Positions 18,465-22,473 of a stretch of 33,905 bases of DNA are shown piece by piece. The notes below the pieces were generated by a model that had not been told where the DNA came from, did not search any database, and was given only the letters and a program-made list of their open reading frames with translations. The position numbers and the translations under genes are program-made. Within the stretch, counting starts at the first letter, position 1. The number at the start of each line of letters is the position of its first letter. The DNA lies in assembly GCA_964603075.1 (NCBI GenBank), contig CAZRTU010000001.1:1-33905 (forward strand), written 5' to 3'. The stretch is from an uncultured bacterium. GTDB lineage: Bacteria; Hydrothermota; UBA3073.

Positions 18465-19772
18465 TTATCGCACGATGGTCAGTCTCTCCCTAAAGGCAGA
18501 TGAGCCATAAATTATCCAGAGCAAATAAACACCGCTTGAGAGTTCTCTGCCCATCATGTCTGTACCATCCCAGGATACAGTGTGGGTATAAGATGGGTAG
18601 GTATTGTTGTTAAAATGCCAGATAAGTCTGCCTGACAGGTCATAGATGGCTACCATGAAAGACAATTCCTTATGTACTGAGCGGCAAGTGTCTCTTTTTG
18701 ACTCCAAGATTATGTGAGTCTCTTTACAGAATGGATTGGGCGATACAGAGAATTTCAGGTAGGGATAGGGTATCTCGAGTATTCCCTGTGGTGGCTCATA
18801 GATGGCTATGCTCTGTGGTCCGTCACCCACATTGAATACCCCTATATTATTGCCATCTGGAGAGAGTTTTGTCACAACATCTTCCATAAAGCTACACACG
18901 TAACAATTCCCATCACTGTCACAGTCAACGCCCATTACACCTGTTCCTAAGAGGATCGGGTTGGAGTTTCCATGAATGATCCTCTCGGTTTGGGTGTCTA
19001 TCATATAAACATGTCCGTAGTCTATCCAACCGCCAGCACCTATCCAGGCTTTTCGGTCTTGGGATATTGAGATAGAGATCGGTGTCCCTCCTATTGGCAG
19101 TGTGTCAATAACCTCATGCGTCTTAGAATTTATCCTGTGGACGCTACCGGCTGTTGTAGAATAATTGCCCGTGCAGACAGCATATAGTTCACCTTCATAA
19201 TCAACGGCTAAATTTTGGGGATTCTTACCAACCTGTACGGAATCCAAGACAGAGTTGGTTTTTGTATCAATAACGTAAACCATCCCGTTGCCCCATGTCC
19301 AGGTGCTCGGGTCGAATGAGGAGATGGCTACAAATAATTTGTAATCCGAGATACATAAACCCTCAGGTGATAATCCCACCCCGATTGTATCTACGATCTC
19401 TCCTGTATTTACATTTATACAAAAGACAGAGTTCACACACAGGGCGCTTACGTATGCTATCGAGTCATTAAGGAACTCCATAGCGTAGGGATTGCTACCA
19501 TCTGGTAGTATGATTATGTCCAAGATATTGTCGTTCGATATGTCGATTTTATAGATATCGTCGGAGGTTGAATTAACTATATATATCTTATCTTTATTTA
19601 TACAGATCCAGTTCGGTGCGAGACCGAGGGTGGCGATATCGTTTTCTACCTGGCTGGTTTCTAAGTCTATGCTGGAGAGGGTCTCACCGATACCATTGAC
19701 AACGAAAGCGGTTCTGGGCATAGGGTCACAAAGAAAGATTGACATTGTTATATTGAAGATAACGGCATACAT
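18465..19772 (-). CDS. YVTN/YncE-like beta-propeller protein with T9SS C-terminal sorting domain
   Basis: ATG 19772 is preceded by AGGGGGA. It has a hydrophobic N-terminus. Blade motifs recur (G..P..I.......YIVN; GLSPEGLCISDYKLFVA; VGKNPQNLAVDYEGELYAV; IGGTPISISIS). The C-terminus SPNPF...IYDLSGRLI...GVYLL...LTIVR is T9SS-CTD-like. It lies 62 nt downstream of the TonB receptor. Confidence 0.7.
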   Translation of the reverse strand: MYAVIFNITMSIFLCDPMPRTAFVVNGIGETLSSIDLETSQVENDIATLGLAPNWICINKDKIYIVNSTSDDIYKIDISNDNILDIIILPDGSNPYAMEFLNDSIAYVSALCVNSVFCINVNTGEIVDTIGVGLSPEGLCISDYKLFVAISSFDPSTWTWGNGMVYVIDTKTNSVLDSVQVGKNPQNLAVDYEGELYAVCTGNYSTTAGSVHRINSKTHEVIDTLPIGGTPISISISQDRKAWIGAGGWIDYGHVYMIDTQTERIIHGNSNPILLGTGVMGVDCDSDGNCYVCSFMEDVVTKLSPDGNNIGVFNVGDGPQSIAIYEPPQGILEIPYPYLKFSVSPNPFCKETHIILESKRDTCRSVHKELSFMVAIYDLSGRLIWHFNNNTYPSYTHTVSWDGTDMMGRELSSGVYLLWIIYGSSAFRERLTIVR

Positions 19773-19834
19773 AGAAATCCCCCTTATTAATCCGGCTGTT
19801 TGGTGAGGCACGCGAAATATTTATACCTGGTGCC

Positions 19835-21871
19835 TTATAGGGATAGTCTAATGCTCAATGACCATGACCTCATCGGCATTGGATATCTCTCGAGAATCTC
19901 GTATTGTTGGTTTGTTAGATTATCTATCTCTACCCTTATCTCTGTATTCTTTCTCAAGATAGAGGTATTGAGACCCAAATTGAGGGCTATAACACTATAT
20001 GCAGATAGCCATTTTGTATTGGCTTCACGGATTGCTCTTTTGTCTACCCACCTCCACTCAAAGTTTAAAAAAAAGGGTTCGTATCTTGTCGAGGCTCTCA
20101 GGGTTATCGTGTGTTTTGGTCTTAAAACAAGATAGTTGCCGTAGTAGTCCTCACCGTGGTTCTTGGCGTTTAGATATGTATGATTGGCCTCGAATTCCGC
20201 ATGCCCACACTCCCATGAGAGCTTTTCCTCTATCCCACTTATTATTGCATGACTTACATTCTGAGGGACATATCTATCGTAGAGACTCCTTCTCCATACT
20301 ATTATATTTCTAATATCCGTACGAAAAAAGGTGATATCGGCATTAACTATCCCCTGGAAAGGAACGGATAACCCGAATCCCGTCTCGAGGTTAGTACCCG
20401 TCTCTGGCAGAAGATCAGGATTCCCCATTGCAAAGATATCCGGCACCCAAAAGAGTTCATGGAATGAAGGCACTCTGTACGTTTTTCCCCAGTTCACATG
20501 AATAACGAATATATAATTTTCTCCGCTAGATAAGGCGATTCCCATCTTTGGTGTTACTATCGGCTCAAGGTTTTCCACCATGTCGCATCTCAGACCGAAG
20601 ATAGCCACACCCCTCACTTGGGAGCCAAATCTTGTTGTATTCTTACACCACAAAGATCCTCTCTCTCTTTCTCTTATCATATCGTTTTGAGGTCTAATTC
20701 TGTCTTCTGTGTCTAGAAGTGTGTATAAGTAAGAGCAACCGTATGATATGCTACCCTTCGCCCAGATACTTTCAGATTTCAGTATCTGCCCATAGGAGAT
20801 ATTATGGAAACCTGTGTTTATCTTTGACCAGGAAGATGGATCTCGGTATTCCCATAGGTCACCCGTGAAGTAAGTCTTAGAAGTAAGAAAGGGGAGAGTG
20901 ATGTCCGTCTGTAAGAAGGTCCTTGAGTCTGTTGAGCTTGCATCCTGGGTTGTTTGCTCTAAGGCACCCGGAAGTCTATTCTTAAGGAGAGAATGATGGA
21001 TTTTTACAGAAGCCTCGATATCTCTGTATTTAAACGGTATCTTAAAGAGCATATTGTATGAGGTAGACGATGAATTCTCCCTTATGTGTTCCTCGCCGGA
21101 TTCGTCTTTGTATATGAAATCATCAGTTTTTGAATACTGTAAGGAGAGAAAAGGATTGCAGATAATGCTGTAGTAATTTTTACCGAAACTGCCAAGTTCT
21201 AATTTTACTTTCGGTCCCTCCCTTTTCCGAGTTGTCAGGATGTTAATTATACCCCCTATTGCCTCCATCCCGTAGATTATTGAGCCACCCTTGATTACCT
21301 CTATTCGTTCAGTTATTTCAGCAGGAATAGATGAGATATCAAAAATACGTCCACCAAGTTCATTCATTAAAATGCCATCCATCAATATTAATACCTTATT
21401 TGGGTCACAACCCCTGATGGTTATAAATTTGCTCCCTCCCGTTTCTCTTATAAAGACACCAGGAAGAGAGCTCAAGATACCACCAAGGTCTTCTTGGTTC
21501 GACTCTTCAATATAATCTCTTTCCACTACAAAATAGTCTGGTGCCCTCGCATTAACGAGGATTTCTTCCATCGGTATAGGGGATGGGGCAAGGTAGAAGT
21601 CGACCCTCGCGGTCTTATCAATCTCCACATCAACCTGTTTGCTTTTTTTTTCGAATCCCATTAAACTTACAGAAAGTAGATATTTAGATGGTTGTATATC
21701 CATTATGGCATAACGACCGACTTCGTCGGTATAAGTTAAATACCCACTCTCTTCAATACATAGGCAGGCATTGGGAAGAGGGAGACCCGTCTCTCTATCT
21801 CTCACATAGCCCTTGACCTTAACGTCAGGATCGTTAGGGAGAATAGATAGGATGCACAAAAGGAGGAACAT
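19835..21871 (-). CDS. TonB-dependent receptor (BtuB-like by context) with CarboxypepD_reg-like N-terminal domain
   Basis: Signal peptide followed by VKGYVRDRETGLPLPNA...GRYAI (carboxypeptidase-regulatory fold). The plug region is LSSLPGVFIRETGG..FITIRGCDPNKVLILMDGILMN. A long beta-barrel follows. It is directly preceded by a cobalamin riboswitch. Confidence 0.8.
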   Translation of the reverse strand: MFLLLCILSILPNDPDVKVKGYVRDRETGLPLPNACLCIEESGYLTYTDEVGRYAIMDIQPSKYLLSVSLMGFEKKSKQVDVEIDKTARVDFYLAPSPIPMEEILVNARAPDYFVVERDYIEESNQEDLGGILSSLPGVFIRETGGSKFITIRGCDPNKVLILMDGILMNELGGRIFDISSIPAEITERIEVIKGGSIIYGMEAIGGIINILTTRKREGPKVKLELGSFGKNYYSIICNPFLSLQYSKTDDFIYKDESGEEHIRENSSSTSYNMLFKIPFKYRDIEASVKIHHSLLKNRLPGALEQTTQDASSTDSRTFLQTDITLPFLTSKTYFTGDLWEYRDPSSWSKINTGFHNISYGQILKSESIWAKGSISYGCSYLYTLLDTEDRIRPQNDMIRERERGSLWCKNTTRFGSQVRGVAIFGLRCDMVENLEPIVTPKMGIALSSGENYIFVIHVNWGKTYRVPSFHELFWVPDIFAMGNPDLLPETGTNLETGFGLSVPFQGIVNADITFFRTDIRNIIVWRRSLYDRYVPQNVSHAIISGIEEKLSWECGHAEFEANHTYLNAKNHGEDYYGNYLVLRPKHTITLRASTRYEPFFLNFEWRWVDKRAIREANTKWLSAYSVIALNLGLNTSILRKNTEIRVEIDNLTNQQYEILERYPMPMRSWSLSIRLSL

Positions 21872-21890
21872 AACGTTAGTGTGAAAGAAT

Positions 21891-22036
21891 AAAAAAAACC
21901 GAGCTTTACACTCGGTGGTATTACATTGACTCCACCCTCGAGAGTCATGTGTCTATTTGTACCAGGTATTCCGAGTGTAACGGCAGCGGGGCTCTGTCGG
22001 ATTTTCACCGTACTTTCCCTGCTATTTGACCTATTC
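21891..22036 (-). promoter_or_regulatory. Cobalamin (B12) riboswitch with terminator expression platform
   Basis: The minus-strand RNA reads AGGGAAAGUACGGUGAAAAUCCGACAGAGCCCCGCUGCCGUUACACUCGGAAUACCUGGU. This carries the conserved core and a B12-box-like element. It is followed by the terminator ACCGAG-UGUAAAG-CUCGGU plus U8 (21891-21916). The 5' boundary is approximate. Confidence 0.75.
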
Positions 22037-22405
22037 TATTTCGAGCTTATGGATATATTCTTTTGCAACACTTGCTATATCCACGATGTCTGAAAATTCT
22101 CGTATGACCTTGGCAAGGTGCCACTTGGCCTCTTTCTTCTCTCCGTTTGTGAATGACTTTAATCCTGCCTCCAGTAATTCAATGGCCTGTTTTCTTAACC
22201 TTGCCTCCTGTGCAGCCGACAATTTCTTTCTCGTTTCCACCCTATGTCTGGGCAGTCTATCGCCTCTTTTCAGACTCATCCTGCGTAATTTTGTTTCTAT
22301 GGATTTCCTCGTCACTCCGAAGTGCTTGGCGAGTTCACCATTACTCATATAGAGAAAATTACCTCTTATAAATTCCATATCTTCTTCAGACCATTTTTTC
22401 GCCAT
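22031..22405 (-). CDS. Small helix-turn-helix (Myb/SANT-like) protein, function unknown
   Basis: ATG 22405 is preceded by AAGGAGG. The N-terminus WSEEDMEFIRGNFLYMSNGELAKHFGVTRKSIETKLRRM looks like an HTH. The C-terminal half is helical and Lys/Glu-rich. Confidence 0.55.
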   Translation of the reverse strand: MAKKWSEEDMEFIRGNFLYMSNGELAKHFGVTRKSIETKLRRMSLKRGDRLPRHRVETRKKLSAAQEARLRKQAIELLEAGLKSFTNGEKKEAKWHLAKVIREFSDIVDIASVAKEYIHKLEIE

Positions 22406-22444: not shown

Positions 22445-22473
22445 ATTATACCATAGAATTTCTTAAAAGTCAA
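22445..22473 (-). promoter_or_regulatory. Consensus sigma70-type promoter of the HTH gene
   Basis: The minus strand reads TTGACT, then a 17-nt spacer (TTTAAGAAATTCTATGG), then TATAAT. Confidence 0.7.

Follow-up and report, generated by a model that had tools for sequence, protein, structure and literature searches.

A vitamin B12 riboswitch placed before btuB is the commonest arrangement known. The compact cobalamin (Cbl) riboswitches of the Cbl-II architecture are defined by the lack of a P2 arm and of the P7-P11 extension, and their Cbl-IIb subclass binds adenosylcobalamin (AdoCbl) (PMC7367189). Some accepted Cbl-II members also lack J1/3 (PMC6158498). In another corrinoid riboswitch, the link from kissing loop to P13 to terminator has been shown experimentally, and other expression platforms have been proposed to use aptamer bases instead (PMC10327014). 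Here, we analyzed a 33,905-nucleotide (nt) stretch of DNA (the window; contig CAZRTU010000001.1 of assembly GCA_964603075.1) from an uncultured bacterium of the lineage named WOR-3 or Candidatus Stahlbacteria, whose assembly is a 2.1-Mb, 83% complete metagenome-assembled genome (MAG). Between a small helix-turn-helix (HTH) gene and a btuB/btuG-like operon, the window carries an element that, judged from its sequence, is probably a working cobalamin (corrinoid) riboswitch of Cbl-II architecture and a B12-dependent transcriptional OFF switch. We favor the compact class-II reading because of the covariance-model match, the orthologues in related genomes, and the BtuB-like and BtuG-like genes downstream. 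It is an ordinary kind of element and leaves the current understanding of the riboswitch class unchanged.

Identity and architecture of the aptamer

An Rfam search of the whole window at gathering score returned only two tRNAs and no riboswitch. With permissive filters, RF01689 (AdoCbl-II) matched 22033-21956 (minus strand) end to end (model positions 1-81) at 31.5 bits with an expect (E) value of 1.1e-5; genome-wide, the window copy was the sole RF01689 match in the assembly (E 1.6e-5). The gathering cut-off of this model is 36.5 bits, a curation threshold rather than a biological feature. RF00174 gave 12.9 bits (E 0.55) over model positions 45-169 only, below its cut-off of 31.5 bits, so that the cmsearch comparison of the two models was negative for RF00174 and positive for the variant model RF01689 by E-value, under the gathering cut-off. 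Exactly one RF01689 match was found in each of seven of the eight genomes of the host's family (among 40 relatives); those of G004 (51.7 bits) and G002 (38.3 bits) exceed the cut-off, and five of the seven family copies score 31.5 to 35.5 bits. An earlier sequence-only reading had recognized a conserved cobalamin-riboswitch core in AGGGAAAGUACGGUGAAAAUCCGACAGAGCCCCGCUGCCGUUACACUCGGAAUACCUGGU, a string that we located as an exact match at 22020-21961 on the minus strand; the RF01689 score and the orthologues over the cut-off bear this out. The only other cobalamin-clan signal in the assembly was an RF00174 match at G000:C163:1641-1861 (plus strand, locus L002). With 14.2 bits and an E-value of 0.23, it is probably a chance match and was set aside as a second riboswitch; the btuB leader would therefore be the only B12 riboswitch in the MAG.

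The features of the locus, in the direction of transcription, are as follows.

22445..22473, minus strand: sigma-70-type promoter, TG-extended (consensus scan, 11/12)
22031..22405, minus strand: HTH gene, Myb/SANT-like, 124 amino acids (aa) from ATG 22405 (open reading frame [ORF]; in 8/8 loci)
22018..22024, minus strand: P3 5' strand UAGCAGG, pairing with 21960-21966 with one G.G mismatch (RF01689 alignment; covariation)
21996..22017, minus strand: J3/4 (GAAA) and P4 hairpin GUACGG-UGAAAAU-CCGAC, with L4 T-loop-like (RF01689 alignment; P4 covaries phylum-wide)
21985..21993, minus strand: P5/L5 AGC-CCC-GCU; predicted kissing partner CCCCG at 21991-21987 (RF01689 alignment; L5/L13 covariation)
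21971..21983, minus strand: P6 hairpin CCG-UUACACU-CGG, 3-bp stem and 7-nt loop, without P7-P11 (RF01689 alignment)
21971..21980, minus strand: candidate antiterminator 5' arm UUACACUCGG, made of L6 and the P6 3' strand (inverted repeat; folding energies)
21960..21970, minus strand: J6/3 (AAUA, 21970-21967) and P3 3' strand CCUGGUA (B12-box-like, 21966-21960) (RF01689 alignment)
21960..21964, minus strand: second candidate antiterminator arm UGGUA (pairs with UACCA at 21920-21916)
21927..21947, minus strand: P13 hairpin UGACUC-UCGAGGGUG-GAGUCA (stem covaries; loop nearly invariant)
21906..21920, minus strand: UACCA plus CCGAGUGUAA, the terminator 5' half and loop, also the alternative antiterminator strand (10-nt inverted repeat)
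21891..21916, minus strand: intrinsic terminator ACCGAGU-GUAAA-GCUCGGU followed by U8 (consensus scan; -10.2 kcal/mol)
19835..21871, minus strand: TonB-dependent receptor, closest to BtuB (domain, PDB, and NCBIfam matches)
18465..19811, minus strand: YncE/BtuG-like beta-propeller with FlgD_ig-like C-terminal domain (domain and PDB-chain matches)

The HTH stop codon is a TAG at 22033-22031 and the receptor ATG lies at 21871 (both minus strand), leaving a gap of 159 nt. A 68-aa GTG-started ORF at 21802-22008 (minus strand) overlaps the aptamer, P13, and terminator and is almost certainly spurious.

The compact element extends from P3 to P3' over 22024-21960 (minus strand), about 65 nt. Alignment to RF01689 places in it the four-way junction P3-P6 with a GGGAA J3/4, an L4 T-loop, a C-rich L5, and a B12-box-like J6/3-P3'. 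The P2 arm and the P7-P11 extension are absent and P6 is short (a 3-bp stem with a 7-nt loop), which agrees with the earlier proposal of a short element resembling class II; as also proposed, the 5' side of the aptamer reaches the HTH stop codon at 22031-22033, with 6 nt between this codon and P3. Neither a P2 arm, nor a long P6 extension, nor an RF00174 score of at least 31.5 bits, as expected of Cbl-I, was found. In the Cbl-IIa subclass, which is selective for hydroxo- and methyl-cobalamin, P1 and P3 are joined by a bulged J1/3 T-loop in contact with both J6/3 and the ligand. Here there is no defined J1/3 because there is no P1, and the label "aquo/methyl-cobalamin type" attached to the element by the sequence-only reading is not established, as both features by which Cbl-IIa is defined, P1 helix and J1/3 T-loop, are lacking. 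By its predicted structure, the element nonetheless belongs to the Cbl-II-architecture cobalamin riboswitches, despite missing the score cut-off, P1, and J1/3.

A hairpin at 21947-21927, 12 nt downstream of P3 and unrecognized in the sequence-only reading, is P13. Its loop, L13, CG(A)GGG, is complementary to CCCCG in L5 with the A bulged, and the two are predicted to pair; a bulged L13 base has also been reported for env8HyCbl (PMC10327014). P13 alone folds at -6.1 kcal/mol. In the window P13, two pairs have changed on both strands compared with the relatives, one from G-C to U-A and the other from C-G to U-A; all six P13 pairs covary in the 17-sequence alignment described below. L13 is nearly invariant, in the long-form WOR-3 riboswitches too, and the kissing loop shows one compensatory event, L5 UCCCG with L13 CG(A)GGA in L037 and L040 (another WOR-3 family) versus CCCCG with CG(A)GGG here. 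At 21934-21945, L13 and the P13 5' strand also contain the palindrome CUCGAG within an overlapping 9-nt near-palindrome, which could form a small alternative hairpin or allow loop-loop self-pairing.

For conservation, we compared eight loci from three genera: the window, six relative genomes, and one metagenome contig. A pattern scan of metagenomes had given three loci, two of them duplicates of known genomes, and a search for related loci with the receptor protein in genome contigs found none. The order of small HTH gene, aptamer, and TonB receptor closest to BtuB is kept in all eight loci. The eight distinct copies show 89% identity per column; nearly all core nucleotides are invariant, whereas the flanks and terminator diverge. 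P3 shows G-C to A-U and G-C to G-U changes. In a 17-sequence WOR-3 alignment (A2), fitted to a custom covariance model (R1) and hence biased upward in its pairing, pairing fills 93.4% of cells, and compensatory changes occur in 16 of 23 pairs, across P3, P4, P5, P6, and P13; this was not reached in any of 500 shuffles, and pairing in slid controls was 45% at most. R1 was built from the eight family copies and run over 272 WOR-3 genomes, in which no compact copy was confirmed outside the host's family (f1). Nine weaker R1 matches (E 2e-4 to 7e-3) are mostly long-form cobalamin riboswitches of other families; three of the nine, of about 103 to 117 nt (L034, L035, and L039), lack the P13/L13 motif of the family. 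A full-text literature search returned no paper containing both "WOR-3" and "riboswitch."

Terminator and candidate antiterminators

The intrinsic terminator consists of a 7-bp stem, a 5-nt loop, and U8, and is the one terminator-like site found by consensus scan; it lies at 21916-21891 and its stem folds at -10.2 kcal/mol, which upholds the terminator and U8 proposed from the sequence alone. The antiterminator proposed with it fared less well: the complementarity between CUCGAGGGUGG and CCACCGAG exists, but the resulting helix (CUC/GGUGG with CCACC/GAG) is weak, at -7.2 kcal/mol versus -6.1 for P13 alone. An antiterminator built from the aptamer itself, UUACACUCGG:CCGAGUGUAA plus UGGUA:UACCA, reaches -15.3 kcal/mol, and by these folding energies the aptamer 3' half is a far better predicted partner for the terminator 5' half than is the P13-based candidate. 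The two strands include a perfect 10-nt inverted repeat, 21980-21971 (L6 and P6 3' strand) against 21915-21906 (terminator 5' half and loop); a perfect 10-mer repeat of this kind arises in 0.8% of dinucleotide shuffles of the region. The duplex between the aptamer 3' part and the terminator 5' part is worth -19.2 kcal/mol, against a shuffle mean of -5.4, and was reached by 0 of 1,000 shuffles. Folding without constraint gives the antiterminated form as the minimum free energy (MFE) structure of the leader (-41.5 kcal/mol); the form with aptamer, P13, and terminator has -29.5 kcal/mol. G004 (p 0.009) and the g2 genus (p about 0.04) show comparable complementarity between the aptamer 3' part and the terminator 5' part.

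We propose the following switch. With B12 bound, the P3-P6 junction would fold, CCCCG of L5 would kiss CG(A)GGG of L13, and the corrinoid would be clamped between them; with the aptamer 3' half locked in this way, the ACCGAGU/GCUCGGU terminator could form and RNA polymerase would stop at U8, 21 nt before the receptor ATG. When B12 is absent, UUACACUCGG of P6/L6 and UGGUA of the P3 3' strand would pair with CCGAGUGUAA and UACCA, an antiterminator that would use up the terminator 5' half and permit read-through into the receptor and propeller genes.

The same riboswitch might instead work with a P13/L13-based antiterminator, as in Priestia megaterium metE, the aptamer 3' half having no direct part; when no kissing loop is formed, L13 and the P13 3' side (GGUGG, CUC) would pair with CCACC..GAG and block the terminator. 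Such a mechanism has been demonstrated experimentally elsewhere (PMC10327014). In the window, the duplex between P13 and the terminator 5' segment is worth -13.3 kcal/mol (p 0.009), the MFE structure of the platform in G003 and in the metagenome variant is a long alternative hairpin in which P13/L13 is linked with both halves of the terminator, and a CACC motif in the terminator region is kept in all eight sequences. However, the position of CACC relative to the terminator differs between the window and its relatives, the P13-terminator duplex of most relatives is no better than that of shuffles (p 0.08 to 0.7), and the helix as originally drawn, at -7.2 kcal/mol, falls short of both the aptamer-based pairing and the terminator. 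We therefore regard the P13-based design as a real possibility, though a doubtful one, and prefer the aptamer-based antiterminator for the window.

In four relatives (L025/L026 in G006/G007, L029 in G001, and L027 in G003), P13 is extended (for example, UCCUUUGGACCC...GGGUCCGGGAGGA) and followed by 4 to 6 U ahead of a CCCGGG terminator. The region concerned lies 20 to 40 nt after P13, and the window copy has no such U run. The arrangement could represent a first, kissing-loop-stabilized terminator in tandem with the second.

Several observations weigh against a working riboswitch with the switch proposed here. The window copy lies 5 bits under the RF01689 gathering cut-off, although its E-value is significant. 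Of the six P1 pairs in the model, four are non-canonical in the window and P1 does not form; P3 is the outermost helix and itself contains one G.G mismatch. Inspection of the eight sequences by eye, for a P1 formed by the final HTH codons with the post-P3 linker, found none that is conserved; the only traces are AGGAGAA:UUCUCCU in G003 and a helix of 4/6 pairs in G004. The eight family sequences resemble one another too closely to give significant covariation by themselves, RNAalifold run on them pairs GCAGGG with CCCCGC instead of forming P3 and P5, and the fitting of A2 to R1 favors the structure. No Shine-Dalgarno sequence precedes the receptor ATG at 21871 in the 21 nt after U8. Finally, the same-genus relatives G001 and G002 show no significant complementarity between aptamer 3' half and terminator 5' half (p 0.2 to 0.4); antiterminator design therefore differs within the family. 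What the family seems to share is a terminator competing with an alternative pairing that the folded, ligand-bound aptamer and P13 would prevent, with the exact partner differing by lineage.

Some of these points (the sub-threshold Rfam score, the missing P1, the P3 mismatch, and a U8-to-ATG interval of only 21 nt with no Shine-Dalgarno sequence) are also what would be seen if the aptamer-like sequence were a decayed relic and the hairpin with U8 a constitutive terminator of the HTH gene, the receptor being driven from elsewhere or hardly expressed at all. This is very improbable: a relic would not be expected to keep nearly all core nucleotides invariant in eight loci of three genera while flanks and terminator diverge, nor to show compensatory changes in P13 and P3; the antiterminator complementarity has been re-created with a different terminator sequence, and the interval between U8 and the ATG is too small for another promoter. 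A functional riboswitch thus remains our preferred reading.

Promoter and flanking genes

The consensus scan found one minus-strand promoter, TTGACT-17-TATAAT with a TG extension at 22473-22445 (11/12), the very site picked out by the sequence-only reading. Relatives keep this promoter sequence ahead of their HTH gene. When the 700 nt upstream of the aptamer were scanned for sigma-70-like sites with at least 9 of 12 matches, seven of the eight loci had only one, and it lies before the HTH gene (11 to 12 of 12 matches). The transcript most likely starts at this strong promoter, and co-transcription of the HTH gene and the riboswitch is the most economical reading; if so, the riboswitch would act as an intercistronic conditional terminator.

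Alternatively, the riboswitch could have its own promoter inside the HTH 3' end, in which case the HTH gene would be merely a neighbor and B12 would have no effect on the 3' end of its mRNA. Within about 60 nt of its 3' end, the HTH gene of the window has a weak -35/-10-like pair, read by eye as TGGATA-17-GAATAT; five relatives have TTGATA-17-GAATA(T/C) there. Distant HTH homologues in two other families have no riboswitch after them. Against this, none of the eight loci has a site with at least 9/12 matches in the stretch from HTH start to aptamer, in line with the earlier remark that no good promoter separates the HTH stop codon from the aptamer; the -35-like hexamer varies at synonymous positions within the window's genus (GTG/GTA GAT ATA), and the HTH stop codon stays within 6 to 11 nt of P3 in all eight loci. 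We consider an internal promoter unlikely and retain the upstream start.

The HTH ORF is conserved in 8/8 loci, and the gene was found in the same seven of eight family genomes that carry the riboswitch; in G004, its stop codon lies inside the residual P1. The protein has only a weak match to GcrA, below the cut-off. Its gene has a strong GGAGG Shine-Dalgarno sequence, unlike the receptor gene. Homologues with 40 to 43% identity occur in two other WOR-3 families (L048-L050, in G017, G014, and G018), just downstream of one or two tRNA genes, and no cobalamin riboswitch was found near them. A functional tie between the HTH protein and B12 was rejected on account of these homologues; the link between HTH gene and riboswitch is positional, not functional.

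The receptor has CarboxypepD_reg, Plug, and barrel domains. Its best PDB matches are Escherichia coli BtuB (E 1e-22), and its best NCBIfam match is TIGR01779, the B12 receptor family, below the cut-off of that model. A TonB receptor lies downstream in all eight loci, with TIGR01779 as the top NCBIfam match in each. The PDB matches of the propeller gene include 8blw_B, which is the chain paired with BtuB1 in entry 8blw, and related chains of the YncE family; its top PDB match, 1l0q, is a generic surface-layer beta-propeller, and the homologue in G001 matches a type IX secretion system sorting-tail model. The BtuB-like and BtuG-like character of the two genes indirectly supports corrinoid binding by the element.

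Two receptor types stand behind the same HTH-riboswitch module, and the split cuts across genera. Type 1 (678 to 715 aa, with CarboxypepD_reg) is found in the window, G001, G003, and G004 (window, L017, L019, and L021), and is followed by a BtuG-like propeller where this was checked (window, G001, and G003). Type 2 (627 to 632 aa, BtuB-like, with a full-length TIGR01779 match) is found in G002, G006, G007, and the metagenome contig (L016, L018, L020, and L024). Riboswitch and terminator are nearly identical in sequence between G001 and G002 although the receptor types differ, which suggests that the cargo behind the terminator was exchanged or differentially lost. The predicted signal peptide of the window receptor is short and uncharged (MFLLLCILSILP...). 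G001 and G003 keep the same receptor start, and in both of them AGGUG motifs precede it.

As to the corrinoid sensed, all eight family genomes contain ORFs with B12-binding domains (about 215 to 240 aa and about 420 to 460 aa). No PduO-type adenosyltransferase was found in the eight family genomes, and a CobA/BtuR-type enzyme was found in three of them, none of the window's genus (the MAGs are incomplete, and EutT-type enzymes were not searched). This distribution gives a weak hint that AdoCbl may not be the sensed form and, indirectly, a weak hint toward Cbl-IIa.

Origin and comparison with known systems

Within the phylum, the nearest counterparts are long-form, Cbl-I-like riboswitches of other WOR-3 families (L032, L033, L037, L038, and L040). 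They share the L5 sequence AGCCCCGCU with the window, and their P13/L13 is almost unchanged, with 16 nt (CCCUCGAGGGUGGGGU) identical in L033; at least L032 precedes a TonB receptor. Unlike the window element, they carry 60 to 88 extra nt (the P6 extension) in place of the 7-nt L6, and no HTH gene lies upstream of them. Two traits of the element are mildly unusual: it has an intergenic position directly behind an ORF, and it appears to be derived from the long-form riboswitches of its phylum. Its fusion to the end of an unrelated HTH gene may have made it a conditional terminator between two cistrons, and a ribosome terminating 6 nt from P3 could influence folding of the aptamer. Taken jointly, that the compact form arose within WOR-3 by loss of P7-P11 from a long-form btuB riboswitch, not from the marine Cbl-II lineage, and that B12 sets the 3' end of the HTH mRNA through an intercistronic conditional terminator, is a speculative proposal that we place on the unlikely side; if true, it would mean an independent origin of class-II architecture.

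On the reading preferred here, the element would explain how B12 uptake of the BtuB/BtuG type is regulated in an uncultured WOR-3/Stahlbacteria lineage. It is also a riboswitch variant specific to one family that the Rfam gathering threshold overlooks. As a natural, very small cobalamin aptamer (~65 nt, without P1, and coupled to a terminator), it is a potential minimal part for riboswitch engineering and offers a potential test of corrinoid selectivity where J1/3 is lacking.

Among described systems, the RF01689 class (e.g., env8HyCbl, PDB 4FRN) resembles the window element in its P3-P6 junction, GGGAA in J3/4, T-loop-like L4 (GUGAAAAUC), C-rich L5, short P6 without P7-P11, and missing P2 arm, as well as in a P13 loop that pairs, here by prediction, with L5 and has a bulged base in L13, and in its position upstream of a B12 transporter. 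The window element differs from that class in that it has no P1 and no recognizable J1/3 T-loop, its 5' side leads directly into an ORF stop codon, its P5/L5 (AGCCCCGCU) resembles the classical Cbl-I consensus and not that of RF01689, and its output is an intrinsic terminator and not occlusion of the ribosome-binding site. The Enterococcus faecalis-type Cbl-II members, likened here by description only, are likewise compact cobalamin aptamers with no identifiable J1/3 (PMC6158498); as a point of difference, their subclass, Cbl-IIb, binds AdoCbl (PMC7367189). For the expression platform, the closest parallel is the P. megaterium metE riboswitch (Kennedy et al. 2023, PMC10327014), which, like the switch proposed here, is repressing and transcriptional, with an L5-L13 kissing loop that stabilizes P13 and a terminator opposed to an antiterminator. 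The metE aptamer is not described as compact, whereas that of the window is; and the metE antiterminator pairs the P13 3' side with the terminator 5' side, whereas the strongest candidate in the window draws on the aptamer's own L6/P6 and P3 3' strands.

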